Under the pieces are notes generated by a model, which worked only from the letters and a program-made list of their open reading frames with translations, was not told where the DNA came from and did not search any database. Shown piece by piece: positions 1-33,467 of a DNA stretch of 36,255 nucleotides (the stretch's first letter is position 1; each line of letters opens with the position of its first letter). Location of the stretch: the IMG/VR virus record IMGVR_UViG_3300025018_000317, positions 1 through 36,255 of that record, one strand, 5' to 3'. This DNA comes from a virus (Duplodnaviria > Caudoviricetes). The position numbers and the translations under genes are program-made.

Positions 1-3000
1 AGCCACCATGTGGTGCTATTCTAGCAGAGTTTGGATATCTTGTATGGTCTGACACAGTGGGACTACCTGACGTTTCCGAACTCGGATGAACATTGGTTCC
101 CATTTTAGAACCACCACTTCCTGATTTCAGGTTAGCAGAAGGTGGTGTTAATTGACCTGGACCAATAGATCTTGTTGGACTGCTAAGTACAGTGGCTAGA
201 CCTACGGCTCCCGCAAAACCAAGTCCAATTTTTCTTGCATGAGGGATAGATTTTTGTCCTGCGGCAGTAATCTTATTGATAAAAGAGTTTGTACTAGAAA
301 CTAATCTAGAAGCAAACCCTTCAGCTTTTCTTTCTGTGCCTTTGAAAAAACCAGACATAGGACTCATACTAACAACATCATTGCTTAATGTTGCTGCTGC
401 TTCGGTTCCGGTCATACGACCGCCTTTGCTATGAAATATTTCAGCTAATCTAGCCATACTAACACCATTAGCTTTGGTTCTCTCCATGGCTTTTCTTGAC
501 TCGATCATAAAATCTACAGCATTTGCAATGTCTATTCCCCTTACTTTCTTATAACGAACAGCACCAGAAGCTTCTTGAATGGCTACATTAACACCTTCTG
601 TAAGGGCGGATTTGGCTACAGGTTTTGCTTCTTCAAGCACACTGCTAACGGCTTTGATTATTCCAGCCCTATCATTACTCTTGAAAGACTTAGTAATATC
701 TTCAAATAAACCAATCATTCTGCGAGATTCGCCAGCTTTAATATGCTTACCAGATATAGGCGTTTGCTCCATCCATTCAAGTAGTCCGAGAGCATTCATT
801 GCTTGTTTTGAATTTTCTCTTCCCATTCTAGAAAGAATAGCTGAGCGATGGCCCTGTAGTGCTGTAGAAAGTTTACCTAGTCTGCTTTGGGTAATGCCTA
901 ATTTTAGAGCGTCGTCTGCTGCCATTTTATTTCGCATAACTGCACTTAGAGTCAGACTTCCAGAAGGTGCTTTAGCTTTTAAAATCTGACTTCTAAGAGA
1001 ATAAGACTCATATGCAGACTTATAGGCTGCGTCGTTTTGTAGAGTAGTTAGTTTCTTCTGCATGTCCGGAGATCCAAGCATTACAGAGACAATATCACCA
1101 TCAAAGTCGCCAGCTAAACCAACCATAGGAGAAGACCTCAAAAGAGTCTCTGAGATTCCCCTAGCTTTAGCTACTTCTTTTATTGAAGCTGGACTAGACA
1201 TAATACCTTTAAATTCATCCATTCCAATAGAACCAGGAGCAACAATAGCTCGACGCACTTGTTCGTTAAACATTGCGACAGCTTCTTCTCCTGGAATCAG
1301 TTTCATTGTGGTAGGCTGATTAGAATATGGGCCAATATAAGGATGTCTACCAAGAAGACCAGCGATGCCTTCTCCTGCCATAAACCTATCGCTCATGGCT
1401 TTAAGTTCATTGGTACTATAAATACCTAGATTCTCCATACTGGTAAACATTTTTTTCGCGTACTTTTTTGTAATACCAACTTCGCCAGGCAGAAGATCTA
1501 TTCCCTTTCTTTCAAGCCAATCTTCAACCTTTGGTGTTTTAGCAACAGATGTTAGGAATACGCTTCCAGGGACTCTGTTTCGAAGCAGGCCGCCCTTTCC
1601 TGTAATCGTTCCAATTCTAGATTTAGCAACGTCTACCTGCAGAGCTTCAACTTGCTTCATCATGGCATCTTTGGATATGGCGCCAGAAGAGTACATCTCA
1701 GACATTTCTATTGTCTTGTTGTATGAGTTTGCTAGATCACTAGTAATGATTGATCCAGTAGCAGTTTGATATTCTGCTAGAGATTTTACGATATTATTAC
1801 CAGGAACAAAAACTGAGCCCAAATCACCTAGCTGAACATTTCCTCCTGTGCGAAGCAGTTCTGGATTCTTAAGCACATCTCTAGCAGCATGAGCGCCCTT
1901 TATATCTTTTAAGGAAGAAAGGCTTTCTAGGGAACGAGTTAGTTCTTTCTGTTCAAGAAGTCTTTCAGGATACATTGCATTCATTCTATTTGATATGTCT
2001 TGTTGTAGTTCAGGACCTACTGCACCAAGATGAGGGGAATTAAGGAATTGGAAGGCGCGGGGTTCTATTGTTGCCATCTTCCCTGAGCCAGGACCTGCAA
2101 CATCTTCAAAAAAGATCTGTCCAGCGCCAACGACGTTTCCTTGTTTAACAAATTCCATTTCTCCTGGCTTTAAACTAGCTAACAAACTAGCTGAATCCTT
2201 TCCAAAAGCTTCTGGAACAGCACCAAAGGTAAGTCCCATTTGTCTTGGAGTAAGATTAGAGGTTCTGGCTAAATCGATTAATCTGGATATTTTAGCAGGA
2301 TGATCGCCTGCTGTAGCATCTTGAATGCTTTTTGCTACACCAAGAGGGTTGTTCAATAACTCCTCTACGGCCATTTGTTCAACTTTGCCAGAGTTCATAT
2401 TCTGACGAGTAAAGTGCCATAGTGCTGTAAACATCTGATTATAGTGTAACACCCTGTTCTTTTTAAGTTCTGCGGTTGTAAGAATCATCTGAACCGCTTC
2501 GTTTTTAATACCAGGCTTTGTTACTCTACTAACGGTTTCGTTTATAACTGACTGTTCACTAGTGGCCCACATACCCTTGCCTATGCCAAACCCCTTAAAG
2601 AAAGAAGGGTTGGTGACGTTTTCGTGGCCAACTACACGTAAGAAATCGCCTTTGCTCTTGTCGTCCTTAAATCCCTCAACAAGCTTCATTGTAAAATTGG
2701 GTGGAGCTTTTACCGGAAGTCCCTCTGGGCTAAGTCCTAGGACCGTTCCTTCTGGAACACGAACATTCATTCTCATTTGAGAGCCTTTATAAGAGTCTAA
2801 GCCGAAAACATTGCCACCTTCTTCTACTTTAGCGTAGTCTCCAAGAGAAAGAACTTTGTCGCTAGCAATAGAAAACTGGCGCCATTTATTAACACTACGG
2901 GCAGCATAGCCTCGTTCAGAAACAAGATACTGTCCTTCTGCAGAAAGTCCTAAGTCTTGAAGACCCATGGCGCTTTCTTCAGACACATACATTGCTAAAC

Positions 3001-4525
3001 CCATTGGAGCGTCAACCATTCGATTGGATTTCGCCCAAGAGAATAAATCATCTATAGTGCCAGATCCTTTTTTCATGAGAGTAGATGCAATCTTGGTTGG
3101 ACTAGAATTAGCTCTTATTGCTTGGCCAGGTCTACGTCCCCAAGATGCTTCATCCGAGAAGAGAGAGAAGGCGTCTTTTCTTGTATCTCTTAGAGACACA
3201 ACGCTTTTAGCAATCTGAGCAGGAGAAAATCCGGGATAGACAGGAAGAAAACCTTCTCCAGTTTCCTTTAGTTGTTTAAAGATGGTGGAGGCTGCTGTTC
3301 TGTCTAGGTGAAAACGTGAACTTGCTTTCTGAAACTCATTCCAAGAATACTTCTCCCCAAGTCCAAAGAATTCTGGAGTAACCTTAAGTCCGCCTTCTTC
3401 AAGAATGGAAGCTTGGTACAACTCGTTAAGTTTATTGTACTTGCTGTCGTACATGTGAAGTAGGCCAGAACGAGCTTTTATATATGCATCTCTACCTGGA
3501 TGCATTCCTTCAGGAGTAGACATAATCCATTCTGGATCTTCCATCATTTTGTTAGTAAACTGCATTACATGAGAATTATAAGCTCTTCTAGACCTTACCT
3601 TTTCTCTTAAAAGAGTTGGAATTAATTCATCGTTAGCTCTTTTAACCATCCACTCTTGACTAGTGTATGTTGAAAGAACTTTTCCTTCTTCGACTATCCC
3701 ATAGGTTCCTGCAATATATTTTGTTTGTCCTGTAGTCCCAGAGGTAATAAGGGAAGGATTTTTAGGATCTATACCAGGAATCTTAAGTGTAATGGCTTCG
3801 CTTTTATCTATACCTAGTTTTCCACCATAAAGTTTTACTCTAAGTTCCGTACCAGGCTTATCTGGTCTACCAAATTCAGTAATAGAAACAGTTCCCTGTC
3901 TTCCTGGTTCACTGATAGACTCCATTAAGTTCTGAAGTAATCCACTCATTTTAGGGGAAAAATCAGACATATATTTCTTTTCAATCTCGCGAGTGAATGA
4001 CATTGAAACAGCACTAAAAGAAGTTGAAAGACCTCTAGCGCTTCTTGATTCCATTATATTAAATAGTTCGCTAAAGCGACCTGCTGCCTTTGCTGAATAA
4101 ATAGAAGAATTTTTACCTATAACTCCAGTGAAACTTTCAATCACTTGAGCTTGATCAGTCGCAGTTAGAAGATGAGGAGATAGAGAGGCATAGAGATGGC
4201 CAGACGGATCCGAAGCTAAGACAGCTTGAGTTACAAGGTTCTTAAGGTCCTTTAGTGGGATACGCACGGTATGTCGTTTGCTTGCTATACCATCAAGCTG
4301 TGTGCGCTTAAAAACATCTGTACCCATATTTAGATTTACAGATTGACGAATAAGAGAAGACGAAAAAGAGGAGCGCGACGAAAGGTTGTCGCTAAAGGAG
4401 TTTACTAGATTTTCAGCATCACCACTTTTAATAAAACTATATCCACCGTATGCAACAGGAGCAGAGATAACAGCAGCTTTAAATAAGCTAGTTCCTGATT
4501 CGTCAGTTTTCTTTTCACTAGCCAT
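1..4525 (-). CDS. Single-chain two-barrel (DPBB) DNA-dependent RNA polymerase, beta+beta' fused, probable virion RNAP (partial, >1508 aa, runs off left edge)
   Basis: Not in ORF track. ATG at 4525 follows GGAGGA SD and overlaps the upstream TAG; manual translation found no stop to position 2. Motifs in order: EGQYLVSER (2912-2938, cf. beta EDSILVSER), KGFGIGKG (2573-2596, cf. KMAGRHGNKG), VQMILTTAELKKNR, ITSDLANSY (cf. beta' ATSDLNDLY), GKGGLLRNRVPGS, GEVGITKKYAKKMF (cf. QCGLPKKMALELF), LLGRHP (cf. LLNRAP), LAGDFDGD (DFDGD 1094-1108), EQTPISGKH (743-769, trigger-loop-like). Confidence 0.9.
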   Translation of the reverse strand, partial: MASEKKTDESGTSLFKAAVISAPVAYGGYSFIKSGDAENLVNSFSDNLSSRSSFSSSLIRQSVNLNMGTDVFKRTQLDGIASKRHTVRIPLKDLKNLVTQAVLASDPSGHLYASLSPHLLTATDQAQVIESFTGVIGKNSSIYSAKAAGRFSELFNIMESRSARGLSTSFSAVSMSFTREIEKKYMSDFSPKMSGLLQNLMESISEPGRQGTVSITEFGRPDKPGTELRVKLYGGKLGIDKSEAITLKIPGIDPKNPSLITSGTTGQTKYIAGTYGIVEEGKVLSTYTSQEWMVKRANDELIPTLLREKVRSRRAYNSHVMQFTNKMMEDPEWIMSTPEGMHPGRDAYIKARSGLLHMYDSKYNKLNELYQASILEEGGLKVTPEFFGLGEKYSWNEFQKASSRFHLDRTAASTIFKQLKETGEGFLPVYPGFSPAQIAKSVVSLRDTRKDAFSLFSDEASWGRRPGQAIRANSSPTKIASTLMKKGSGTIDDLFSWAKSNRMVDAPMGLAMYVSEESAMGLQDLGLSAEGQYLVSERGYAARSVNKWRQFSIASDKVLSLGDYAKVEEGGNVFGLDSYKGSQMRMNVRVPEGTVLGLSPEGLPVKAPPNFTMKLVEGFKDDKSKGDFLRVVGHENVTNPSFFKGFGIGKGMWATSEQSVINETVSRVTKPGIKNEAVQMILTTAELKKNRVLHYNQMFTALWHFTRQNMNSGKVEQMAVEELLNNPLGVAKSIQDATAGDHPAKISRLIDLARTSNLTPRQMGLTFGAVPEAFGKDSASLLASLKPGEMEFVKQGNVVGAGQIFFEDVAGPGSGKMATIEPRAFQFLNSPHLGAVGPELQQDISNRMNAMYPERLLEQKELTRSLESLSSLKDIKGAHAARDVLKNPELLRTGGNVQLGDLGSVFVPGNNIVKSLAEYQTATGSIITSDLANSYNKTIEMSEMYSSGAISKDAMMKQVEALQVDVAKSRIGTITGKGGLLRNRVPGSVFLTSVAKTPKVEDWLERKGIDLLPGEVGITKKYAKKMFTSMENLGIYSTNELKAMSDRFMAGEGIAGLLGRHPYIGPYSNQPTTMKLIPGEEAVAMFNEQVRRAIVAPGSIGMDEFKGIMSSPASIKEVAKARGISETLLRSSPMVGLAGDFDGDIVSVMLGSPDMQKKLTTLQNDAAYKSAYESYSLRSQILKAKAPSGSLTLSAVMRNKMAADDALKLGITQSRLGKLSTALQGHRSAILSRMGRENSKQAMNALGLLEWMEQTPISGKHIKAGESRRMIGLFEDITKSFKSNDRAGIIKAVSSVLEEAKPVAKSALTEGVNVAIQEASGAVRYKKVRGIDIANAVDFMIESRKAMERTKANGVSMARLAEIFHSKGGRMTGTEAAATLSNDVVSMSPMSGFFKGTERKAEGFASRLVSSTNSFINKITAAGQKSIPHARKIGLGFAGAVGLATVLSSPTRSIGPGQLTPPSANLKSGSGGSKMGTNVHPSSETSGSPTVSDHTRYPNSARIAPHGG

Positions 4526-7500
4526 TTCTCATTCCTCCGTGCAGGATTTTTCTAGCATCTTCGCGACGGTCTGCCTTAAATGAAATATCTAGATTATTTT
4601 TAACAGATGGACTGATAAAAATATTTGCATTTTTAACACCAGAGGCCGCCAATATCCTATCGATATTTGCTCTAATCTCAGATTCAGATTGCCCCTGTGC
4701 TTCTTGTAATTCTTCGGCAGCCGCTTCAATGGCCGGTCTTCTTGTTACAAGTCGCGCTTTATCTGGCCAGAGGTCGTAATCATACATGTTTTTAGCAGCA
4801 TCCTGTACTACTTTAAGCTTTATATCTTCTAAGTCTACAGCGGGGTGCCAGCCTACCCAGTTTGGACCTGGAAGACCCTTACCTTTTAAACCTTCGATAA
4901 GAAGTTTTGTTCTCCTATACCAGTCGGGATAAGATTCACCAGGATGCCTTGTAGACAAAAACTCAGACCAAAGTTCTTTTGTTTTTGGCATACCTTCTGT
5001 ATCTTTATCTTCATATAGTTGTCTTAGTGTTACGTCAACTTCAGCTGCTTCTTTCTCAGATAGAAGTCCTTTCTCTTGGGCTTTTCTTGCGTCGGAAGCG
5101 TCTTTGATTCTCCATCTGGCCATCATGAGAGCCTTCTCATTTTTTGGAATCATCTTTAAAATCTCTTTTCTTTCTGCCATATCGGCACCAACGAACTCTT
5201 CGAAGTAATCCCTTTCTCTTCTTGGTTGAGAACGATAGATTTTGGTAAAATCTTGAGTAAATGGATTTATTCCAAATAGAGTTTCTCTTCTCTGTTGCTC
5301 TGCAATGGCAACAGCTTCAGAGTCGTTAGCTTTTATTGCCTGTTCTTTTAGACGAGTGTTTTTAACATATTTCAATATATCGAAATACTCCTCTAGGCTT
5401 CTTCTTTCCTCGACTTCTTTTGGGGGAGTACTGGAGCCAAGAGAGCCACGAAGTACATTAAAGAATGGCTTAATGAAATCTCGAACAGGATGTTGCCAGA
5501 ATGCACTATCTGTTCCAAAAACTTGAAACTTTTTATAATCTTCTACTGCGGTTCTCTTGTGAATCAGCTTAGCTCCGGGAGCCATAGGGGTTAAAAACTC
5601 AAACGGAGTTTCCGCATTGTGAGCAATAGTCTCCCAGTAAGATCCAAGTATTTTTGCAAAGAGTCCTTTTTTTGCTCCTTTATTTTTAATCTCTTCGTTT
5701 TCTCTCGCTAAGATAGCTTCCATTGGCGTGGTGTCTCTGTCTCTATATAAATAAGGAGAGAAGTTTTTACGCTTCTTCTTTTCTTTGTTCATTGCGAGAA
5801 TGTCTTTGAGACGAGCTTGATCTTCCTTGCTTAAGCGACCACTAGTACTCATTCCCCTGACTTGATGTAGGGTTTCCTTGAATCGATCTGAATATGGTGC
5901 AACATCAGCCAAGATAGAAAGTCTTTCTATGGCAGGATAATCTTCTGGAGCTACATCTTTTAACCATGGATGTAGAGCTGCGTAGCCAACGCCAGGAAGC
6001 CTTTCTTCTCCCTTGGCGACCTTGGTATAGGGATCTCCATGCAAGAAGTCTGGGGACCTCTCAGAGGGTCCTGGTAACCAATCAGGCATTGTATTCCTAA
6101 GAGGATTATATTGCTCTATTTGTCTTCTTCTATGCGGATATAAACGACGTAGCATTTCTGTCGTCATAAGACCGCCGCCGATCTCCTTGTCCCAATATTC
6201 TCTTTCTGCTCCATACATTCTACGAGCAGATTCTAGTTGAGATTCTTCGTCAAAAAGATCGGATGTTCCAGTAATAGCTTCTTTGACAGAGGTAGCTGTA
6301 AAACCTGGAAGACCAACCATTTCTGTCATTCTGTAGACGCTTTCACCGCTTGTCCCTTTAACCCCATAAGGACTGATAGGAACGCCCGCTTCTAACTCTC
6401 CACCAAGTTCTTTGGGAAAGGGCTGGTATCCAAACTTAGGAGGCATACTAAGGACTGCGCCACCAACTTCTCCTTCCGGTATAGGACCTCCTTTACCGTA
6501 AAGAGTACCTCCTCCTTTATTTCCACTTTGCCATTCAGATGTATGCATATAAACAGCTGGTTTAAACAACTTGCCTACCGTTGCTGCCAAGACAGGACCA
6601 ACAAAAGGAACATCTTCAAACGCTGCTCCTGTTAATGGATATGGCCTGTCATAGTAGTGTTTTCTTTCTAGATCATAAGTAAAATTTTCGATAAACCATC
6701 TGCGCATTGGAGATGGGGCGTCTTCGCCGTAGATAGATTTTTCTTTAGCGTTAGCGATTAGAGATGGCAACCAGTGTTGTTCATATCTGTCTATTCTTCC
6801 ACCCTCATATGGTGACCTACCGAACTCCCACCATCTGCCTTTTCTAACAGGAACTAATTGTTGTCCAGAGTAGAGTTTTTCTAGTTCATTGGGTCGTTTC
6901 TCTGGAACAAGGGCACCAGGAAGGAAAGGGAGAATTAGGGCGGCGCCAATGGTTGCTCCAACAAGAGACGGTATCTTTGCAGGAGACATTTCCCCAAAGA
7001 CTCTCATTGCCTTGTTTAAAGCACCCTTTCCCTTTTGGATAGAAGCTATCTTTGCAGCAAATCTACCAGTTCTACTCTTCATTTTATTGGCAGTTTCTCT
7101 TTCTAACATCTCAATAGTGTTTTTCTCAAGAGGCGCTAAGATTTCTTCGGAAACAGCAGTTCCATAAAGAGCTTTTTTAAAGAAGGAAGATTCTGCGCTT
7201 ATGTGAGCAGAGGCTTGAGAAAGAGATAGGCCCGCCTGTGCCTGAAGCATTGTTTGTTTGCCAAGGCGTCTTCCGTATCCGTAGAAGAGTCCTCCAACTG
7301 CTCCAATGGTTGGAAAAGCAATCAAAGAACCTAGGTTTGTGCTACCTGGAGCGCTATCTTCCTGCCATTCTCTAAGGGCATGACCTCCTGTTATCTCAGC
7401 AATTGTTGAAACTCCCTTTTGAACCATAGTGGCAGCATGACCAATGCCAGCTGTGATACCTTCTGAAAAGATTGTTCCGTCTAATAGCGTAGAGTTGCGT

Positions 7501-7913
7501 GCAGCATGATCTAGCTCTTGGTAAGCCGTATACATAAGAGGAGCAGCAATACCAAGTTTGGCTGTTAATTTTCCAAAAGTTTTGAGACCGCTGGAGGGGT
7601 CTACGTCAAACCGGAGACTTCTTACAAGAGGAATCTTTGGAAGAATATCCTTAAGGATAGGCATTTCAAATGGTGCGCGAGCTAACTGATTAAATCTTTC
7701 TATAAGAGAAGTTCCGTATCCACTAACAAATCTATAAGCAGACTGAAGTCTATTTTTACCCCCAGCAAAAATAAACATTTCACTTTCTTTTCCAGCAGCT
7801 CCAAGGAAAGGAATCTTTTGTTTAAAACTTCCTTTGGGAATTGGTCCGCCAGCGAGAGATCGTCCGTAAGCTTCTGCAAATTTAGGATCTGCTCCTGTGA
7901 TATTTCTAATCAC
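4518..7913 (-). CDS. Large tape-measure-like / ejected virion protein, C-terminal portion (frame open upstream to 8042)
   Basis: 1131 aa in the tape-measure position after tube and chaperone genes; TM-like segments LIAFPTIGAVGGLFYGY and VGATIGAALILPFLPGALV; helical charged C-terminus; no Cys. Upstream in-frame sequence ITEILEKGFRYEAGQLRVGKVGGDVLLERAS looks coding. Confidence 0.6.
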   Translation of the reverse strand: MIRNITGADPKFAEAYGRSLAGGPIPKGSFKQKIPFLGAAGKESEMFIFAGGKNRLQSAYRFVSGYGTSLIERFNQLARAPFEMPILKDILPKIPLVRSLRFDVDPSSGLKTFGKLTAKLGIAAPLMYTAYQELDHAARNSTLLDGTIFSEGITAGIGHAATMVQKGVSTIAEITGGHALREWQEDSAPGSTNLGSLIAFPTIGAVGGLFYGYGRRLGKQTMLQAQAGLSLSQASAHISAESSFFKKALYGTAVSEEILAPLEKNTIEMLERETANKMKSRTGRFAAKIASIQKGKGALNKAMRVFGEMSPAKIPSLVGATIGAALILPFLPGALVPEKRPNELEKLYSGQQLVPVRKGRWWEFGRSPYEGGRIDRYEQHWLPSLIANAKEKSIYGEDAPSPMRRWFIENFTYDLERKHYYDRPYPLTGAAFEDVPFVGPVLAATVGKLFKPAVYMHTSEWQSGNKGGGTLYGKGGPIPEGEVGGAVLSMPPKFGYQPFPKELGGELEAGVPISPYGVKGTSGESVYRMTEMVGLPGFTATSVKEAITGTSDLFDEESQLESARRMYGAEREYWDKEIGGGLMTTEMLRRLYPHRRRQIEQYNPLRNTMPDWLPGPSERSPDFLHGDPYTKVAKGEERLPGVGYAALHPWLKDVAPEDYPAIERLSILADVAPYSDRFKETLHQVRGMSTSGRLSKEDQARLKDILAMNKEKKKRKNFSPYLYRDRDTTPMEAILARENEEIKNKGAKKGLFAKILGSYWETIAHNAETPFEFLTPMAPGAKLIHKRTAVEDYKKFQVFGTDSAFWQHPVRDFIKPFFNVLRGSLGSSTPPKEVEERRSLEEYFDILKYVKNTRLKEQAIKANDSEAVAIAEQQRRETLFGINPFTQDFTKIYRSQPRRERDYFEEFVGADMAERKEILKMIPKNEKALMMARWRIKDASDARKAQEKGLLSEKEAAEVDVTLRQLYEDKDTEGMPKTKELWSEFLSTRHPGESYPDWYRRTKLLIEGLKGKGLPGPNWVGWHPAVDLEDIKLKVVQDAAKNMYDYDLWPDKARLVTRRPAIEAAAEELQEAQGQSESEIRANIDRILAASGVKNANIFISPSVKNNLDISFKADRREDARKILHGGMRNG

Positions 7914-7947
7914 AGAAGCTCTTTCTAAAAGAACATCTCCACCTACT

Positions 7948-8349
7948 TTACCAACTCTTAGTTGTCCTGCCTCGTAGCGAAAGCCTTTCTCTAGTATTTC
8001 TGTGATCGAGCCATCCCGGATTTGTTTTGCTGATTTCTTGAATCAAGCCAGGAGAAAAATATCTGGTGACACGAGATGCGCTTTCTAATGGAGAAAGCAT
8101 ACTGCTAACCTGGAATGTACGAAGTATTCTAGCTGGAGAATATTCTTCTATTCCACGAGCAGCTAATGCTAAATAATCAAAGCCTCTTTTTCCGTTAGAA
8201 AACTCTAAGCTTCCAAGCATGCCAGTTGCGGCAATACCTGCACCGAACCCCATATAGGCTGGAATTTGAGAAGAGACAGGATGGGCTAATGGCTGATCAC
8301 CATAAGTCCACTGATCGGATCCTTGATAGCGTGCTGGAATAAAAGCCAT
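7948..8349 (-). CDS. Probable N-terminal portion of the tape-measure-like protein (frame-disrupted)
   Basis: 133 aa with Gly-rich hydrophobic segment YMGFGAGIAATGMLG; its 3' end overlaps the open +1 frame of the downstream ORF (7948-8042). Confidence 0.55.
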   Translation of the reverse strand: MAFIPARYQGSDQWTYGDQPLAHPVSSQIPAYMGFGAGIAATGMLGSLEFSNGKRGFDYLALAARGIEEYSPARILRTFQVSSMLSPLESASRVTRYFSPGLIQEISKTNPGWLDHRNTRERLSLRGRTTKSW

Positions 8350-8355
8350 TAATGA

Positions 8356-9183
8356 TCACTGTTTCCCCTTTTGACTATCTAGATACTCAAGCACATCAGC
8401 GTAAATAACTTGTGCGTCTGATACCATTTGAGCACGAATTATATGAGAATCAACAAGATCATGGCCCCTTAACCCTTTTTCGGCCTCTTTCCTTTCTTTT
8501 TCTAGATCTCTTGCCTTAAGTCTTTTGTTAGGGTTAGCTATGATTGGAGAAACAACGTCTTCTATTTTTTGGCTACTTAAACTTCCCTGAGGATTTTTGG
8601 GATCTGTGTTATGAATAGCCCAAAGATCGTTTGCATCAATATTTCTTTTCTTTGGCTTTTCTTCTTTAATGTCTTTTGTTATTAGTTCAAAAGGACCTTG
8701 GATGATATTCATAGCTATAAGCTTTTTCTCTGCCTGAGCAACCAGAAGTAAAAATGCCTTATAGTTTAATTTATAAATATCCTCTACTCGGTAGGATGGA
8801 AAAGCAATTGTAATCCACTCTCCCATATCGTAGATAGAGGCAAAACGCGGATCTCGAATCGCATATCTTGCATAATCCAAGTCGTTAGTAAAGCCTTCGG
8901 CTGAACCGGGACCTGAATTTGCAATAATATTAAACACTACTGTTGCAACAGTACCAGCAAGAAGCTGATCCATATTGCGAACTAGATTATCGTCTAGTAC
9001 ACATTTTCTAAAGATTTCATCTTCTATTACTGCAATTGGAACTATACTATTTTCGTACTGTTGAGAATACGAAATAAAATCTTCTAGACTGAGAAGTTTC
9101 CAGGGAACGATAGTCTCATCGTCAAAAACAGTTACAAAGACTTCTCCGTAGAGTTTTCTCGTCTGAACTAGACGATGGTGCAT
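8356..9183 (-). CDS. Tail assembly chaperone paralogue with C-terminal extension (GT-like)
   Basis: N-terminal ~95 aa align with 9190-9624 (YGEVFV/YGDVFV; IEDEIFRKCVL/IEESMVAKCLL; AGTVATV/AGTLSTL); lies just before the tape-measure-like gene. Confidence 0.65.
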   Translation of the reverse strand: MHHRLVQTRKLYGEVFVTVFDDETIVPWKLLSLEDFISYSQQYENSIVPIAVIEDEIFRKCVLDDNLVRNMDQLLAGTVATVVFNIIANSGPGSAEGFTNDLDYARYAIRDPRFASIYDMGEWITIAFPSYRVEDIYKLNYKAFLLLVAQAEKKLIAMNIIQGPFELITKDIKEEKPKKRNIDANDLWAIHNTDPKNPQGSLSSQKIEDVVSPIIANPNKRLKARDLEKERKEAEKGLRGHDLVDSHIIRAQMVSDAQVIYADVLEYLDSQKGKQ

Positions 9184-9189
9184 TAGAAC

Positions 9190-9624
9190 CTACAGTTTGC
9201 CAACAAGCATTGCAGCACCTTGTGGGGTGTAGAAATTAGAGTTCTGCATAATTTGCTCGTGTAGGGTAGAGAGGGTGCCTGCCTTAGAGTCATCCCAGCT
9301 AACTTCCAAAGAACGCCAAAGAAGACATTTTGCAACCATAGATTCTTCTATCTTCATAGGGTTAAGTTGGACATTGTTTTTCTGAGCTTCTTCGAGTTCT
9401 GTCTGTAGAACGATCCATTCTTTTCTAGAGATAGCGCGCCAAACATAAACCTCATCGTTAGAAAAACCAGAAACAAAAACATCTCCGTATTTTGCTTTCC
9501 ACTGTTCTACTTGTTGATCAGATGGACGTGATGCAACCTTCTTATAAACATCAACAATGGTTTCTTCTTTCTGTTCTTCTTGTTCGACATCTTTAGTTTC
9601 GGTCGTTTCGTTTACCTGTGTCAT
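9190..9624 (-). CDS. Tail assembly chaperone (G-like)
   Basis: 144 aa, acidic N-terminus, EQWKAKYGDVF motif; located between tube and tape-measure-like genes; GGAG SD. Confidence 0.7.
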   Translation of the reverse strand: MTQVNETTETKDVEQEEQKEETIVDVYKKVASRPSDQQVEQWKAKYGDVFVSGFSNDEVYVWRAISRKEWIVLQTELEEAQKNNVQLNPMKIEESMVAKCLLWRSLEVSWDDSKAGTLSTLHEQIMQNSNFYTPQGAAMLVGKL

Positions 9625-9633
9625 TAAAAACTC

Positions 9634-10419
9634 CTATACTACGGTTCTAGCAATAAAGTCATAAACTTCTTGTACCGCTTCTCCCCCTACTCTAATTGTT
9701 TTCATTTGTCCAGTCAACCTAACATCTAATATTTTTTGAACTGTATGGTTTGCTTTAGGCTCTTCGTAATTTCCAAAAACTACAAAAATATCAAAACCAT
9801 CAAAGGCAGGATCAACTGGATTGCGAATCTGCTTAGTAAGCTTTTGGTTTGTATTGCTTTTCGCCCAGATCTGATCTTCAAACTCTTCAACTATGTTTTC
9901 AAAGACCCTGTCTCTCGGGTTTTTAACTCCAAATGTAGCATATCCAGCTAAATCGTTATAGAACTTGTAGCGATCTCCTCTTGTGCCTCCCCCGTTAACC
10001 ACTCTCTCAATGCTTTCTCTGTTGATTCGTGTTCCATTGGAACCCCATACAGGTCTACGATCTACTGGTCCACGAAGAGGATCTATTCCAAGAGCCTTAT
10101 CTTGTTTACTAAAGCTTTCTTTTGATGTATCAAAAGATGCTGCAGTAGAAATATTTTTAAATCTTCTTAGAACAGCCCAAAGATATCCCGCTTCTTTGTA
10201 GTTGATAGACATTTGGCCGCTAACCATTGACTGCCCAGAAGATACATCGTCCCAATACTGAGAAGCGTATCCAAAGATGGGGGTCTTCTGATGATGAATG
10301 GAATACTGTAGTCCAGTAATTTCGTCTATCCAAACGTCACCAATATATAAGAACATTTGACTGCCGCTAAAATACTCTAAGTCGTAAACTTCGGGAGATT
10401 GTGTAAATTGAGATGTCAA
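9634..10419 (-). CDS. Tail tube paralogue (possible tube initiator / baseplate-tube junction)
   Basis: Shares tube pattern: YFSGSQMFLYI, LQYSIHHQKTPIFG, VSGQMSI, FDIFVVFGN, EVYDFIAR; TTG start with GGAG SD. Confidence 0.7.
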   Translation of the reverse strand: MTSQFTQSPEVYDLEYFSGSQMFLYIGDVWIDEITGLQYSIHHQKTPIFGYASQYWDDVSSGQSMVSGQMSINYKEAGYLWAVLRRFKNISTAASFDTSKESFSKQDKALGIDPLRGPVDRRPVWGSNGTRINRESIERVVNGGGTRGDRYKFYNDLAGYATFGVKNPRDRVFENIVEEFEDQIWAKSNTNQKLTKQIRNPVDPAFDGFDIFVVFGNYEEPKANHTVQKILDVRLTGQMKTIRVGGEAVQEVYDFIARTVV

Positions 10420-10431
10420 TGTTTATCTCTC

Positions 10432-11379
10432 CTAAATAAAAGGATTGCGGCGTCTTGTAAACCTACCAAACGAACTATCGTTTTTGTATTTTTGATAATC
10501 TTCTTCAAAAATAAGACTGCTTGCAGATTTTGCAATGCCTTTCTGCAGTTGATTACTGACTGAATCTATTTGTCTCTTCCCAACTCTTCTCATTGGGTCA
10601 AAATCTCTAGCTACGAAGTTTACAGTATTTTCTGTAATTAAATCCTCAATAGACATTGTTTGACCCTCAGATACAAACTCGACTCCGTATATATCCATTC
10701 TGGAAATAGCCCCATATTCATTAGCAAAAGAAATAAGAATATCTACTGGGGGTAGTTGGTCCATAACAGCAGAAGTGACACTTGATGCTTCAAAATCTGT
10801 AGGATGAGCCTCTAAGAATTCATACAAAACGTGTTTGTCGAAAACAGTGAAAATAAGGGAACCAGCGATTTCTCTCGGACCTCTTGTGAATCCAGCTGGA
10901 TAAACTGTTCCACATCTACGAACCGCTCTCTTATCACGAAAAGTAGAAATAGATAGAGTTTGCACTTCGGCGAGTGTTTTTGTGATTGTAGATGGTCTTG
11001 CCTTAGCAATGTCAGCAGCATCCTTTGATGCTATTTGAAGATTTTGAGAGCTTTCAAAAGTATCTTTCATTAGTCTATTTTTGCGTTGAAGTAGTCGAAG
11101 ATATGTATCGCTACCTGGAAGCTGATCGGCAAGCCTGGTATTGATTTTGCTCAGATTTCTTCTATTTCGTTCTAGCTGACTTGTATACATTGTTACTATT
11201 TCTTGAGGATCTATTCTTGTCCCAATATCGTTAACATTTCCTCTGTTGATTTTGATTAACACCTGTATATCACAACCTGCATACGTTGTGTTATTTAGAT
11301 ATACCGATCCCGCAAGCTTTGGCTTTTTAGGATCGCCAGCTAAGGTAGTTGGATTAGTGTGGTCGTGGTCTAAGCCCAT
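10432..11379 (-). CDS. Tail tube paralogue with helical insertion
   Basis: RGPREIAGSLIFTVFD and DQLPPVDILISFANEYG closely match the major tube. Start probably ATG 11379 (AGGTGA SD) rather than GTG 11388. Confidence 0.75.
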   Translation of the reverse strand: MGLDHDHTNPTTLAGDPKKPKLAGSVYLNNTTYAGCDIQVLIKINRGNVNDIGTRIDPQEIVTMYTSQLERNRRNLSKINTRLADQLPGSDTYLRLLQRKNRLMKDTFESSQNLQIASKDAADIAKARPSTITKTLAEVQTLSISTFRDKRAVRRCGTVYPAGFTRGPREIAGSLIFTVFDKHVLYEFLEAHPTDFEASSVTSAVMDQLPPVDILISFANEYGAISRMDIYGVEFVSEGQTMSIEDLITENTVNFVARDFDPMRRVGKRQIDSVSNQLQKGIAKSASSLIFEEDYQKYKNDSSFGRFTRRRNPFI

Positions 11380-11396
11380 AGTTATCACCTATAAGT

Positions 11397-11424
11397 AGCT
11401 TATGTTGAAGAAAAAACATGTCAA
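11397..11424 (-). promoter_or_regulatory. Possible sigma70/sigmaA-type promoter
   Basis: TTGACA (11419-11424), 16 nt spacer, TAAGCT (11397-11402), directly downstream of a terminator. Confidence 0.35.
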
Positions 11425-11432
11425 CAATAGGT

Positions 11433-11463
11433 AAAAAAATAGCCATCAAAAGATGGCTATTTT
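11433..11463 (-). terminator. Rho-independent terminator after tail tube gene
   Basis: AAAATAGCCATC-TTTT-GATGGCTATTTT perfect hairpin running into a U7 tract. Confidence 0.85.
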
Positions 11464-11486
11464 AAAGAAGAAGATAAGAAGAGAAA

Positions 11487-12170
11487 TTAAGCTCCCGAAG
11501 AAACTCCACCCTGGCTTATGATCTTTTTAGTGTTTGCACTTGGAACATGCGTCCATCCGATAATCTGACGAGCCACATAAGTATGCTGTTGTTCAGTTAC
11601 GATGTCGTCAATGGAGACTCCAGAACCTTCGTTAAGAAGTTCAACACCAAAGATTCTCATAACAGCAAGAGCACCGTACTCGTTAGCAGCAGCTAGGGTA
11701 ATATCGAACGGAGGAATCTGATCGGCATACCATGCTGTTGCTAGTTCTTGATCTCCTCCAACAGTAGCAATTGGAGACTCTGCGTTTTGAACCTGAGTAG
11801 CTGGAGTAACTCCGCTTGTACTTGTTAGGTTCGAAGAGCTTAGATCGTTTGGGTCTTTAAACGCTGGTCTGATATCGTCTTTGTCTGATTGGAACTTAAG
11901 TCCACCATCAGCAGCCATACCACCTAGAATACCAAGAATGGCAGAACGGTCAAAGACAATAAAGATAAGTGTTCCGGCAATACCACGTTTACCTCTAGAG
12001 AAAGAGCGGGCATCGGCTGAACCCATCGTAAAGATAGGGGCTTTTTCTCTAGTGATACTGTAGCTAATAGCCTGAAGAGACCCAACGGGTTTGTTTCCAA
12101 ACACCGCCTTAATGTCCACTCCAGAAAAACTATTATAACTTGCCAAATATTGACTAACTTGTGAGGCCAT
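11487..12170 (-). CDS. Major tail tube protein
   Basis: 227 aa immediately after sheath; SFSGVDIKAVF, LQAISYSITREKAPI, RGKRGIAGTLIF, PPFDITL; GGAG SD; followed by terminator. Confidence 0.85.
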   Translation of the reverse strand: MASQVSQYLASYNSFSGVDIKAVFGNKPVGSLQAISYSITREKAPIFTMGSADARSFSRGKRGIAGTLIFIVFDRSAILGILGGMAADGGLKFQSDKDDIRPAFKDPNDLSSSNLTSTSGVTPATQVQNAESPIATVGGDQELATAWYADQIPPFDITLAAANEYGALAVMRIFGVELLNEGSGVSIDDIVTEQQHTYVARQIIGWTHVPSANTKKIISQGGVSSGA

Positions 12171-12182
12171 TTAAATCACTCC

Positions 12183-14060
12183 TTATGATGCAGCAAGGGC
12201 TACATATACGCTAATTTGACGCAATTCGAAAGCAGGCACACAAACCAACTCAATATTTGCCTTTCCTTGAACTTGCATTGTTGGAGTTGAGATTACAACG
12301 AAATCGTAACGTTGCAAGTATTCTCCCTTCTGTGCCTTCAAAAGTGACTGATCTACGTTTGTCTCTAGGGCAGCCAATCTAGGTCCGGTGATAGCTTCGC
12401 CAAGAAATGGTTCTCCAGCAGCACGAATTCCATCAATAACAGCCTTGACGATACGAACAGTAGACAGTCTCTTGTAGTCGCTATCTGGACGAGCAGCCGT
12501 AGGAGCATCAGCAACTACGATTCCCTTATTTGGTTTGCTATGGAACATAACGTAACCATAGCCAGCTAGAGTATCAACCTTAGAGGTTGCAATCCTAAAA
12601 GGTAGTCGAATTCCTGGCTGAACCTTGTTTGTTGGAGCCGAATTCTCTGCTAGAGAAGAAACCAGACCAACATAAGGAGCCACACCAGCTGATACATAAG
12701 GTAGGGCAGAGGCCGAGTTGGACATAACAACCTGGCCAGCAACCAGGCTGAGATACTTACCGATATCGATAAGGTGATCATTTCTGTCCTTTAGCTGGTT
12801 GCCACCTGGGTAACCTGAGTCGGTAGCAATAAAGCCACCAAACTTTAGTCCATCTACTGAATTGATTGCATGACCTGGCAATCCTGTTCCAGCATTTGCC
12901 TTACGACCTGCAACCCACTTGAGACCAAGAAGACCCGTACCATTAGTGCTAATAACCTCGTTACCTGCGGAATCCTCAGAGCTAACTGGCTCCTTTCCAA
13001 TCCAAGCATTAACGTCTTTACCACTCCAGGAAACTGGAGGCTTAACACCGACAGCACCATGCATCATGTCGTGGTTCTCAGACTGACGATAACAGAAATC
13101 AGCCAACTGATAAGCAAAGTTTGCTTCATTAAAGTCAGATGATTCAAGAGCTACGCCATTGGCATCAGTGGTGGCAGAGGCAGATCCAACGCTTGGATAA
13201 ATCTCAGCAATACCATCACGATCAAGATCCCACCAGAAATACCATTCGCCCTGATACTCTTGAGCGAAAACCTCTCCAAGGGCGTCATAGAAGGTACCTG
13301 GAGTTGGATAAGTAGAGGATGATGCCCATGGAGCAGAAGTATTCAATGCGGAAACTTCAGCTGTGGTCATATCTCTAACGTTGCTATCATCAGCGTAGAC
13401 ATTACGAGGAAGAACCAAGTCGATGTCCTCGTTTTCGATCTCTAGATATCCCTTATAAAGGGCTTCGTAAAGCTCCATTCTACTTAGAAGAACACCATCG
13501 TCACCAGCAGTATAACTAGCTCCACTTACACCGTCAGAAAGAGCCAGTGTAATAGGAACAGCTAAGCTTCCAATATCTCCTGGGTTACCAACGGCGGTAC
13601 CAGAGACAGATACTTCGTTTTCGTCGATAGCAGCTGATGGGTAGACTGGGTTATTGTCGTAAACCAAGAAATCATCGGATGTTCTCCAGACTCTTAGACG
13701 ACCTGTTGAATCTTCCCAGAAGATTTTGTAATCGCTACCCGCACCAGCATCCTTGCTAACGGTTTCAATAGTGATTCCGCCACCAACATCTGCTAGGGTT
13801 GCTGCAACTGCGCCAATTCTTAGAAGTCTAATGTTAGTTGCTCCACCTGATAAAACCTCAAAAAGACCTCTAACAAGAGTTCCGTCAGTGCGTCCAAATT
13901 CGTTAACAGCAGTAGATACGCTATCTACTGAGTAGAATCGGTTTGTGCCACGAGATGCAGTTCCCATAACGAGAACGACTGGAGCGCTACTAACAGGTGA
14001 AACGTTCAAGTTCCCGTCAATTAAATGACCAAACTGCCCTGGCAAGTTTTCATAGGACAT
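12183..14060 (-). CDS. Contractile tail sheath protein
   Basis: 625 aa; N-terminal LPG...PVVLVMGTA..G and C-terminal RLSTVRIVKAV...VPAFELRQI are sheath-like; precedes tube; GGAGG SD. Confidence 0.9.
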   Translation of the reverse strand: MSYENLPGQFGHLIDGNLNVSPVSSAPVVLVMGTASRGTNRFYSVDSVSTAVNEFGRTDGTLVRGLFEVLSGGATNIRLLRIGAVAATLADVGGGITIETVSKDAGAGSDYKIFWEDSTGRLRVWRTSDDFLVYDNNPVYPSAAIDENEVSVSGTAVGNPGDIGSLAVPITLALSDGVSGASYTAGDDGVLLSRMELYEALYKGYLEIENEDIDLVLPRNVYADDSNVRDMTTAEVSALNTSAPWASSSTYPTPGTFYDALGEVFAQEYQGEWYFWWDLDRDGIAEIYPSVGSASATTDANGVALESSDFNEANFAYQLADFCYRQSENHDMMHGAVGVKPPVSWSGKDVNAWIGKEPVSSEDSAGNEVISTNGTGLLGLKWVAGRKANAGTGLPGHAINSVDGLKFGGFIATDSGYPGGNQLKDRNDHLIDIGKYLSLVAGQVVMSNSASALPYVSAGVAPYVGLVSSLAENSAPTNKVQPGIRLPFRIATSKVDTLAGYGYVMFHSKPNKGIVVADAPTAARPDSDYKRLSTVRIVKAVIDGIRAAGEPFLGEAITGPRLAALETNVDQSLLKAQKGEYLQRYDFVVISTPTMQVQGKANIELVCVPAFELRQISVYVALAAS

Positions 14061-27129: not shown

Positions 27130-30100
27130 CTAGAACTTAGTTCGTTTTGGCATTTTTGATGTACGACCTAGTTTTATCTTTCCTTGCATATTTCCAGTAG
27201 GTTTTGGAGCATCATAACCAAATCCAGGCCAAGACCATACTCCGTTAGAAGAAGGTTTTCTATCGGTATTGGCCGCAGGTATTCGACTATCTACAGAGAG
27301 TTGTTCGAAAATAGATTTATCTTTTGAAAACTCAGATGTTCTATTACCTGGCCTATGTTCTCCTTCTTCCTTCTTGTTTAAATGAGAGTCTCCAAATGTA
27401 CCTGCCATAGAAATATTTGCAACAAATTTAGGTTTAGAAAACATAGACTTTTCTAAAGTGTGAGCAACAAGAGCCAAATTTACAGCGTCTAGAAAGTGGT
27501 CTCCAACCTTCTCGTCAAGAACACCATAAACTGGCTGACCATACATACTGACCCTGTCAACGACATAGTTTTGTAACTGAGCGGTAAAGTCTAGATCTCC
27601 TCTTGGATATCTAATCTGTATTTGCTCAAACCTTCTAACTGAGTTTTCTACCAAGAAAGACTTGCTATGTTTTTTGACCTTTTGTTTGGTAAACGGATCT
27701 GTGATTTCAATACTAGTGCTAAACGAGTATCCTTTAACAATGTCTTTTAGTCTAGAGTCAGGACTAGAAGGTCCATGCAAAAGGGTTTGATCAAAACCAA
27801 ACTTACGTAGAACTTCAATTTGGGTTGTTCCAAATCCTTGGTCCACATATATAAACTCAGGAAGCCATTTTCTATTAAGCTGAGAGATTCTTTGACAGGC
27901 AGCAAGCTGCGTCCACTCTCCTCTCCTTACAACGTCCTTCTCAACCAAATAGAACAATCCATCATCGGGATTAAATCCCATTACAGCAATAGTTGTTCCT
28001 ATTTTGTGATCGTTCCAATCTACTCCAATTGTATACGCCCACTCCTTGGTTGGCTTCAGGTCTCCATAGTTAAATTCTGCCTGACACTGTTCAATGTATT
28101 TATTCTGATAAACACCCTCTTCCTGTTCACCAAACTCCGCTTTGATTTCGTGCTTGTATCCAGCCTCCGTCAATTCAGATTTAAAATAATCGTCAAGATC
28201 TTGAGTCCAGTTAGGGTTAACGAAAGAAGGATAAAAGAACTCTCTGTATTGTTTGTTCATACAAGTTTCATAGAATTTTGCACGAGCACCAGTAGGGGTT
28301 GAAGACATCCACACAGTTGCTTCTGGAAAGTTGGCAATTGTGGCGATAGCGGCATTGATGTCACCAGGGCTATTGTGGGTTAAAGTCCCACTGGCAACAA
28401 AATTGTTTGTTTTAGGTACTCGTAAATCATAAACTTCTTTAAAACGATTTTTCATAGGATGAATAATATTAATCCTAGAAGCATAACAACAAATTCGTTG
28501 TTGAATTTGATTTATAAAATCCTCTTCACCAATTTGTTCTAATCCTATCAGTAGTTTTTCGATACTATTAAGAGTTGGATTAACTTTTCTATGTAAACTA
28601 TCAAAAATAATTTGCTTACCTGTAAATTTCTTAGAAATAGATTTCTTAATAGATTGAAAAATATCTTTAAAATATCCAGCATGATATCTCAAATTAGAGT
28701 ATTTATTTGGATTAGATACCCTATTAGTTATAGCAATTTCTAATTTTGCAGACTTAGCAGAACTACCAAAACCAATATAATTATTAAAAAGTTTAATAAA
28801 ACGGTCTTCGGCAATAGATAATTGATATACGGGATTTTTACCAAACCCAGAAGGTTTATGTTTAGATAATGATGATAAGATCCCCAGTTTTTGCAGTAAC
28901 AGTCTTATTATACGAATTACAGTAAAGTCTTCCTGAGAAACTACGACAGAATTTCTTGTAAGATTAACCGAACCTTCTGCATCATAAAATCCCGATAAAA
29001 ATGCTCCTAACCCTTCGATGTCCAATGTGCTAATTTCTTTTGTTATTTTTTTGCTAGTCAGAAATCCTGGAAACCATTTTTCAATATAATCGACAAAAGT
29101 TTTTGAACTTAGACGTAATCTATATCCCTTACCGGATGAGTATTTGGAAATCTTACCTTTATTAGTAAAGCCCAATTGAACCGCCAAATCTCTATAGAAA
29201 ACAAGGTTGGAAATATCTTTATCAGTAAATTCTATAGTTGTTCTATCTAAATATCCATCACCTAAGAAATAACCCATTATTTGACATAATCTAGGATCAA
29301 CAGATCTATGCCCTAAAATACCTTGGCGTGGATGGATAAAAAAATCACCAATTTGCAAATCTTCAGCAGCTTTTTCTGTAACTCCATTATCAGTAAGTAC
29401 AATATGCTTATGGTCTTTTGTAGTCTCTAAATATCCATATGAAGATTTTATAGCATACAGATTGGTCTCTTCTCTTCTTGACTTCCAGATGGCAGGAGCG
29501 ATATTAGAATGTAAAGATTCGTCTAGACAATGTATATTATAGTCTTTAGGAATATCATCAGAAATAAAAGAAATTGTTCCATCAGAACCTTCTATTAAGG
29601 TATCTGGAGAAACACATAGATAGTCGGCTTCGTCAAACACAAGCATGTTTGCTGGCTGACCACGAGCAGCGCCCGCTTCCTGTCCCGATCTTGTACCAGC
29701 TGTAAAGCCGATAATATTCGAACCGTTAAAAAGTTCCATTTTGTAACTTGGAGACTTTACATATCTAGAGCGAGACATGAAAAGAATATCATTACTTTTA
29801 ATAAGGTCATCGATGCGACCAAAGATCATTTCAATCTGAGACTGATATGGAGTAATAACAACAACCTTAAATTGTTTATGTGTCCATATTGCATAAAGGA
29901 TAGAGATACATAGAACTTCTGTTTTTCCAGCCTGGCGCCCGACACGAAAGACCTTTCTTCTTGAGCTGCAGTTGTGAACAATCAAACCGTTAGCAACAAA
30001 GTTGTGTCTTGTATCAACCTCTATATCCCAAACGTTATCTTTTCCAAGATATTCTATATTTGTAATTTTTGTTCGGGAGAGAGTATTGCATTTTCCATGG

Positions 30101-31521: not shown

Positions 31522-31977
31522 TTATCGATGGTTCCACAGTGTGCCTGCTTTACCCCTGAGTGCATTGAAGCCATTGACGGCTTTATTGGCATCCATTTTT
31601 ACCCCCCGTCCCACCGCCGAAGCTCCTGATCCAAGCGTGCCGAGGACGCCCCTGTTTGATCTAATAGCAGATCTCATAGCTCCTACTCCCATAGCGCCAT
31701 ATCTTCCCGCTCCAGCGCCAAGCAAACCTGCTCCTATTGTGCCGAAGAAAGAAGGGTCATCGCGAAGAGCTATGTTTGCAGCCATACTGCCATAGAGACC
31801 AGCGCGACCATATGAACCAGCCATGCCTTTTCTCTGAGCAGCAAAACCAAGAGCGCCAGCGGCCAAGGTTCCCCAAAAAGAAGTGTCTCTGTCCATGGCT
31901 ATATTTGTACCCATGGCTCCTAATGCACCATAACCTCCACGCATACCTAAGCTATGAGCTGTTGATAAAAAACCCAT
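31522..31977 (-). CDS. Small Gly/Ala-rich membrane-active-like protein with internal repeat
   Basis: 151 aa, GxxxG-rich, two similar segments 43 aa apart; GAGGTG SD; no Cys. Confidence 0.7.
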   Translation of the reverse strand: MGFLSTAHSLGMRGGYGALGAMGTNIAMDRDTSFWGTLAAGALGFAAQRKGMAGSYGRAGLYGSMAANIALRDDPSFFGTIGAGLLGAGAGRYGAMGVGAMRSAIRSNRGVLGTLGSGASAVGRGVKMDANKAVNGFNALRGKAGTLWNHR

Positions 31978-31988
31978 CTAATTCACCT

Positions 31989-32714: not shown

Positions 32715-32717
32715 TGG

Positions 32718-33455: not shown

Positions 33456-33467
33456 GGTTTTGCACTC

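Follow-up and report, generated by a model that had tools for sequence, protein, structure and literature searches.

A predicted single-chain two-barrel RNA polymerase in the tail operon of a contractile-tailed phage contig and its probable delivery from the virion

We examined a 36,255-base stretch (hereafter the window), which is the entire virus contig IMGVR_UViG_3300025018_000317 and carries all its large genes on the minus strand, and identified at its end, within a tail operon, an open reading frame (ORF) that, judging from its predicted structure, almost certainly encodes an RNA polymerase of the two-barrel fold. The conserved residues indicate that the enzyme is very probably active. 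The reading that we favour, and consider probable, is that this single-chain polymerase is built into the tail by means of a C-terminal tag, is injected, and transcribes the earliest phage genes without the host enzyme. An earlier note, made from the letters of the window, had proposed a single-chain beta plus beta' polymerase at this position, which was supported by the model, the fold searches and the invariant catalytic aspartates.

Sequence family and predicted fold of the polymerase

The minus-strand frame from 4525 to 2 comprises 1508 stop-free codons and continues past the contig end, and the complete protein, taken from L007, a second assembly of this phage, has 1560 amino acids (aa). 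The earlier note had reported an open frame of more than 1508 aa that is absent from the annotation track, which its truncation at the contig end may explain. The ORF starts with ATG, with a GGAGG ribosome-binding site 8 nt 5' of it, and shares 8 nt with the ORF 4518–7913 at the stop of the latter, which is the overlap with a tape-measure-like gene that had been pointed out before. The following parts were delimited:

2..4525, minus strand: polymerase-bearing ORF, first 1508 of 1560 aa, with no cysteine
4534..4538, minus strand: GGAGG ribosome-binding site, within the end of the upstream gene
3809..4525, minus strand: N-terminal region (aa 1–239), poorly conserved and outside the modelled span, starting in the aligned homologues with a Gly/Ala-rich apolar stretch
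2078..3808, minus strand: beta-like half (aa 240–816), model 1–577 on Escherichia coli RpoB 118–1244
2573..2596, minus strand: K644-x5-K650, putative active-site lysines of the beta barrel
1598..1969, minus strand: clamp-like helical connector (aa 853–976), model 614–737 on the archaeal clamp domain 3qqc
1073..1567, minus strand: predicted catalytic double-psi beta-barrel (aa 987–1151)
1340..1348, minus strand: R1060-H-P1062
1094..1108, minus strand: D1140-F-D1142-G-D1144 metal-binding loop
506..1072, minus strand: beta'-like C-terminal part (aa 1152–1340), with a putative bridge-helix/trigger-helix order and then a conserved EQTPISGKH
2..505, minus strand: C-terminal scaffold, with an apolar helix (aa 1430–1447; positions 185–238 of the window) and a Pro/Gly linker

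The motifs that the earlier note had named were found where it placed them (KGFGIGKG at aa 644, RHP at aa 1060 and DFDGD at aa 1140–1144), and the distance from R1060-H-P1062 to D1140 satisfies the spacing filter of Chaban et al., at which [RK]xP lies 20–100 residues ahead of DxDxD (Supplementary Data 4 of PMC10770324). In 2000 shuffles, chance yielded DFDGD at a rate of 0.05% and DxDxD preceded by R/K-x-P at 2.8%; since the motif alone is therefore modest evidence, the polymerase call rests on conservation and fold.

Word-index searches with the ORF returned 12 and 10 homologues, and a 9-sequence profile searched against 1.84 billion representatives detected 255 clusters (50% identity) at E <= 0.001, with 150 of them among the matches listed. 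We aligned 125 sequences, namely the core from the window, 115 near-full-length database proteins and 9 proteins from the loci described below; one protein (P0006), short fragments and several long hits were left out. The homologues are 19–43% identical to the query (median 26%), and 22 conserved positions were tabulated across them. D1140, D1142, D1144, P1062 and E1253 are invariant (125/125), K644 and K650 are each present in 120 sequences and R1060 in 123, with K644, K650 and R1060 occurring jointly in 113. As for the conservation of DFDGD, on which the earlier note had made its proposal depend, the three aspartates hold throughout, whereas the letters between them do not, the pentamer being DKDAD in 34 homologues, DVDGD in 12, DTDGD in 11 and DFDGD in only 4. 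P0006, which has no DxDxD stretch, was treated as an assembly error because L001, 100% identical to it over the core, carries DxDxD.

That we are dealing with a catalytically dead polymerase fold, retained as a structural part of the tail, would agree with the several relatives that do without a polymerase; yet the three invariant aspartates and the nearly invariant lysines and R-x-P, at such low overall identity, make it extremely improbable.

The family has been missed by both Pfam and PHROGs: no Pfam family matched the ORF at E <= 0.1, including the RNA-dependent RNA polymerase (RdRP) family PF05183, and no PHROG did. Against PDB sequences, the best E values were 0.53 (phmmer) and 0.12 (9-sequence profile), both with unrelated proteins. 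The polymerase protein gave no tblastn match in 50,697 phage records, and neither did a divergent member in annotated phages; a search of prokaryote genomes with the ORF returned nothing, and the best score in the ESM Atlas (0.80) was at chance level.

The AlphaFold2 model, which covers aa 240–1340 and was built with 54 sequences in the alignment, had a mean predicted local distance difference test score (pLDDT) of 90.5 and a predicted template modelling score (pTM) of 0.90. Every row shown by Foldseek against the PDB was an RNA polymerase chain or QDE-1, so that the structural check put forward in the earlier note came out in favour of an RNA polymerase, and in a structural search of 48,161 chains rows 1–19 were all two-barrel polymerases. 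The structural aligner placed model 1–577 (aa 240–816) on RpoB 118–1244 and model 631–1101 (aa 870–1340) on Rpb1/beta', the two matches thus occupying separate, collinear halves. Paired barrels, which had been anticipated as well, are present in the model, with a beta-type barrel N-terminal to a beta'-type double-psi barrel that bears DxDxD. The stand-alone double-psi barrels 7dbo and 7dww fit model 748–912 (aa 987–1151) over 82–83 of 86 residues with a root-mean-square deviation (rmsd) of 2.2–2.3, and the beta-barrel subunits of AR9 and phiKZ match model 208–578 (Z 11.1–11.2). K644 and K650 lie on adjacent predicted strands, at a spacing shorter than in cellular beta, and are the putative active-site lysines of the beta barrel; likewise, the helices that follow the catalytic barrel are putative bridge and trigger helices. 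The archaeal clamp domain 3qqc aligned with aa 853–976 at Z 6.9, a middling score for helices; in the predicted structure, model 614–737 and 631–1101 align with clamp and beta' C-terminal elements.

The best whole-chain matches, QDE-1 and RDR2, cover both halves at Z 12.0 and 12.3, respectively (QDE-1 in the search of 48,161 chains: Z 11.9, 505 residues aligned, rmsd 8.2), and the phage single-chain enzymes scored below QDE-1 (P74 gp62 at Z 9.2, gp96 at 7.8 and gp66 at 6.6). With a fold no nearer to gp96, gp62 or gp66 than to QDE-1, and with no profile match to PDB sequences, the suggestion of a distinct lineage was supported.

The gene slot in the tail operon and its exchangeable cargo

The genes of the window follow the order terminase, portal, capsid, sheath, three tube-like genes, two small paralogues, a gene of 1.3 kaa and the polymerase ORF. 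The sheath, tube-like and chaperone-like genes, together with the synteny with 0305phi8-36 and ME3, agree with the myovirus tail operon that the earlier note had assumed. The neighbours of the ORF are:

4518..8349, minus strand: gp145-like gene, cysteine-free, tape-measure candidate
8356..9624, minus strand: a pair of paralogous genes located where 0305phi8-36 has its tail chaperonins gp143/144
9634..14060, minus strand: three tube-like genes and the contractile tail sheath

The gp145-like gene is a single gene in relatives and is split here into the ORFs 7948–8349 and 4518–7913 by a frameshift near 8001, probably an assembly error, as an independent assembly also breaks at 8001–8002. In five other loci (L002, L006, L035, L037 and L044) it encodes 1778–2610 aa with 14–32 cysteines, probably due to intein insertions into a protein that otherwise has no cysteine.

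The tube and 1.3-kaa genes match only six cultured phages (0305phi8-36, WH1, Edson, KLEB27-3, MTATph1 and ME3). In the cultured phages and the metagenomic loci the order is fixed: the chaperones, the gp145-like gene, one further gene (the slot) and a baseplate hub gene of ~2000 aa; the hub gene is not part of the window, but L007 (in part) and relatives show it. The polymerase ORF thus fills the gp146 slot of 0305phi8-36/ME3-type myoviruses, between the gp145 homologue and the baseplate hub.

The slot was surveyed in 28 loci that were reached via the gp145-like gene, some of which are duplicates. In 19 of them the slot protein had both a match to the family profile and DxDxD, and in L039 alone it had the motif pair and a DEDD-like motif with no profile match. 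Four slot proteins had no DxDxD, two of these being the same 193-aa tag-only protein; one slot protein was cut off, and in the remaining three loci the sequence ended ahead of the slot. Where complete, the polymerase family genes are separate ORFs of 1424–1592 aa after the gp145-like gene, while slot proteins in general range from 193 to 2537 aa with differing cargo. The shortest, in L018/L019 (13353–13934), consists of the C-terminal region only (113 bits) and is a natural empty carrier; in these loci the gp145-like protein stays at 1292 aa and the hub follows intact.

The C-terminal scaffold of the polymerase is common to the slot proteins that have no polymerase, and its terminal tag, formed by the final 52 aa, falls outside the contig. 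In the tail block gp145-gp146-gp147 of 0305phi8-36, which occupies the same position, gp146 shares this C-terminal region (22 bits against 4.5 for the best of 600 shuffles) and likewise has no cysteine, but it carries a DEDD-like exonuclease motif instead of R-x-P/DxDxD; in the alignments of Hardies et al., no more than its last 60 residues could be matched with relatives (PMC2147016). The slot of MTATph1, at which the gene is cut by a transposase, resembles the gp146 case. The polymerase is therefore a swappable cargo on a small tail protein, with some relatives carrying only the tag or an exonuclease.

Three cultured phages have the motif series in proteins that are not annotated as polymerases, with the pairs REP..DHDQD in ME3 gp36, RYP..DHDGD in WH1 gp095 and RYP..DYDGD in KLEB27-3 gp034, and in the latter two these motifs stand behind a DEDD-like N-terminus. 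Slot proteins with a DEDD-like exonuclease motif fused to polymerase motifs are encoded at L046:21259-28806, L047:22313-29617 and L039:12873-18818. Over the core, Edson and WH1 are 93% identical, and Edson probably carries a distant family member too. An ME3 protein of 1603 aa, as long as gp36, was a fold match of the model in each of its two halves (E 1e-8 and 8e-6), and so was a 1258-aa half-entry, which we took from its length as WH1 gp095. The profile comparison of ME3 gp36 was weak (hhalign E 0.053; 11.6–23 bits with a hidden Markov model, in one stretch), and thus its homology rests on the fold matches and the motif order. These distant members have gone unrecognised in cultured phages, namely ME3, WH1, KLEB27-3 and probably Edson, and make the family testable at the bench.

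Proposed virion packaging, delivery and transcription

We infer from sequence features that the polymerase protein is packaged in the virion. It has its slot and its C-terminal region in common with 0305phi8-36 gp146, which is recorded as a virion protein on the basis of mass spectrometry. Cysteine is absent from 121 of the 125 family members, compared with a cysteine content of 1.05% over 138 pieces of ORFs from two related genomes, and the polymerase protein, the gp145-like protein and 0305phi8-36 gp146 are all cysteine-free. In ME3, the slot protein has 0 cysteines, versus 9+3 in a second polymerase-like gene outside the tail operon (L085, 222114–226849). This second gene consists of a 798-aa ORF ending in RNPS, a 243-aa ORF resembling a homing endonuclease, and then a frame with DVDGD, and is probably split by an intron; ME3 thus appears to have two polymerases, like P23-45. 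Neither the accessible part of PMC4496689 nor PMC13434306 mentions a lack of cysteine in the N4 virion polymerase, a trait that would mark translocated proteins.

The gp145-like and slot proteins both end in a short 'D-R' tag. When the C-terminal tags of the polymerase and gp145-like proteins were modelled together as a 3+3 complex, the prediction scored 0.50, against 0.00 for the best control, with a partner pLDDT of 51–54 and with at least 60% of the contacts agreeing between runs, and was graded as weak support; on this scale, 18 of 157 solved complexes and 2 of 215 mismatches passed at <=0.60, these two being the only mismatches that passed. The C-terminal 180 aa folded alone reached a pTM of 0.25, and the model gave no fold match.

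Several observations weigh against packaging and delivery of this kind. The other virion proteins of the window are poor in cysteine too (2 of 625 residues in the sheath, 1 of 419 in the capsid), so that its absence from any one protein is weaker evidence, and at the profile level the two tags are only marginally alike (19 columns, E 0.024). The sole note of detection by mass spectrometry in the slot concerns gp146, which has no polymerase motifs and is entered in GenBank as a hypothetical tape measure, with the remark 'identified as virion protein by mass spectrometry', while WH1 gp095 and KLEB27-3 gp034, on which a literature search found no paper, could owe their label 'structural protein' to homology. 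The clamp-like region is kept in the model, and a folded body of 1100 residues would need unfolding; in the case of P23-45 gp96, the authors tied the absence of the clamp to passage through the tail (PMC10770324). Also, the whole-chain structural scores were middling (Z 8–12, rmsd 4–8 Å), so the fold shows membership of the superfamily and not closeness to one family. Finally, Hardies et al. called gp146 a tape measure, mainly on its length (PMC2147016).

In line with that name, the slot protein could itself serve as the tape measure or make up one half of a two-part tape, in which case the polymerase would be tape-fused like P23-45 gp96 and would still be injected. The absence of cysteine and the 'D-R' tag common to both proteins fit this, the weak prediction of the tag complex is compatible with a two-part tape, and the best viral fold match of the model (BFVD A0A8S5SD80 of Siphoviridae sp. 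ctnpt50, template modelling score 0.43) is labelled 'minor tail protein'; this last protein is possibly another tail-linked polymerase. On the other hand, the slot protein shrinks to 193 aa in L018/L019 with no change in the gp145-like protein or the hub, its length varies more than tenfold among loci along with its cargo, ~1100 of the 1560 residues form a globular enzyme in the model, and it is the gp145-like gene that directly follows the chaperone pair. We hence regard this alternative as unlikely, the gp145-like protein being the likelier length ruler and the slot protein the likelier cargo carrier.

For the polymerase injected from the tail, the course of events would be as follows. The protein would be made late, and its C-terminal tag would load it into the tail tube or tip beside the tape-measure-like protein, probably by pairing with the C-terminal tag of the gp145-like protein, which looks similar. 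Contraction of the sheath would then expel it, and it may pass unfolded or partly folded and refold in the cytoplasm, where it would transcribe the first-entering genes on the DNA template, perhaps from phage-specific early promoters. More tentatively, and with somewhat less than even confidence, we suggest that the slot is a modular delivery site, at which a tag protein of ~190 residues docks on the tape-measure-like protein and brings interchangeable enzymes into the cell, the usual cargo being a hitherto undescribed lineage of clamp-bearing single-chain polymerases that would be threaded through the tube and refold in the host; in some cases the polymerase would be joined by an exonuclease, and in others the slot would carry just an exonuclease or no cargo.

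A motif scan of two complete relatives, G001 and G005, detected no second polymerase, so their later genes would use the host enzyme. The same finding would fit a polymerase that is not a virion protein and serves middle or late genes, its gene being merely located in the tail operon, and so would the clamp kept in the model, as in P23-45 gp64 (PMC10770324). Such an enzyme would not be expected to be fused to a tag common with the virion protein gp146, to be cysteine-free, unlike the second polymerase of ME3, or to be encoded deep in the structural operon and coupled to the upstream gene, and we give this explanation little weight.

Perhaps the enzyme is an active virion polymerase whose main job is other than early mRNA, such as transcription-driven DNA entry, priming or RNA copying. 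QDE-1 and RDR2, its best whole-chain matches, are RNA-silencing polymerases, and fusion to a DEDD-type exonuclease occurs in WH1, KLEB27-3 and L039; moreover, no promoter motif conserved across relatives was found. Yet gp66 also resembles QDE-1/RDR2 and is nevertheless a DNA-dependent early polymerase (bioRxiv 10.1101/2020.03.07.982082; PMC10770324), phages of this group encode DNA replication genes, and the motif scan left the two complete relatives with no other polymerase. Such a role is accordingly quite improbable, in our estimate.

In the search for promoters, a 17-nt repeat in G001 was rejected because it is the terminal overlap of the contig. The same genome has three copies of a conserved hairpin, TGAGYA-ATGG-TRCTCA followed by a T run (G001:C1:181428, 183931 and 184621; L062), which lie ~50 nt 5' of small genes and show one compensatory change and conservation of the loop and the upstream sequence; as it folds like an intrinsic terminator, this hairpin was set aside as a promoter. 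In P23-45, the pre-early terminators bear a conserved motif (PMC10770324). A scan of ME3 for repeated 14-mers, with 20–40 kb left out, gave no family above 3 copies.

Relation to known phage polymerases and further observations in the window

The polymerase would work like gp96 and gp66 but belongs to neither family. Like it, gp96 of Thermus phage P23-45 (8H2M/8H2N; Chaban et al., PMC10770324) is a single chain with two barrels and DFDGD at a tape-measure locus, and matches the model at Z 7.8 (329 residues aligned, rmsd 4.3) and 7.3. However, gp96 makes up the N-terminal portion of a tape measure of 5002 aa in a long-tailed phage and has no clamp (PMC10770324), while the polymerase described here is encoded by a separate gene for 1560 aa in a phage with a contractile tail, has a predicted clamp-like region, and shows no sequence or profile match to gp96. 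It thus has no in-frame fusion to a giant tape measure, a trait of gp96.

Phi14:2 gp66 is reportedly a capsid cargo of a podovirus. It is a chain of 2166 aa from a crAss-like phage, with no sequence match to the polymerase of the window, which lies in a tail operon; the two are alike in being single-chain two-barrel enzymes, and gp66 (6VR4) matches the model at Z 6.6 (476 residues aligned, rmsd 5.3). It is packaged and translocated into the host (bioRxiv 10.1101/2020.03.07.982082). QDE-1/RDR2 and the YonO-like enzymes are similar in fold to the model, with no profile match to the RdRP family; the YonO-like gp99 of 0305phi8-36 lies in the right, non-structural arm (PMC2147016). The phiKZ and AR9 polymerases, whose beta-barrel subunits match the model, consist of several head-packaged polypeptides, in contrast to the one tail-operon chain here.

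Single-chain two-barrel virion polymerases have been demonstrated experimentally in phi14:2 (gp66) and P23-45 (gp96) (PMC10770324), and we found none described in the literature for a contractile tail. We came across no description of the family in the openly accessible literature, with one.7z supplement of PMC10770324 and the supplement of PMC7824862 lying outside the search. ME3, WH1 and 0305phi8-36 are not named in 10 supplements of PMC10770324; a polymerase in a gp146-type slot is named neither in PMC5000817 nor in the accessible text of PMC5795418, PMC12390700 and PMC13282480, and the ME3 genome announcement names no RNA polymerase. In the accessible part of a 2021 survey of jumbo phages, 0305phi8-36 and c-st alone of its group 3 are credited with a polymerase (PMC7824862). 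The system raises the questions of how a large enzyme passes through a contractile tail and how a sigma-less single chain finds promoters, along with that of a natural cargo tag.

Elsewhere in the window, the large terminase subunit (27130–31494, minus strand) contains two inteins carrying LAGLIDADG endonucleases. Upstream of it, at 31522–36254 on the minus strand, four consecutive genes have 0 cysteines in 1565 aa. The largest of them (at least 928 aa) has a protein-kinase-like domain at a Pfam E of 5e-5, below the cut-off; it also bears an HE motif (aa 789) and repeats of a 'DDAYNTIEGL..GGMA' unit. These four genes may encode a second set of injected proteins.

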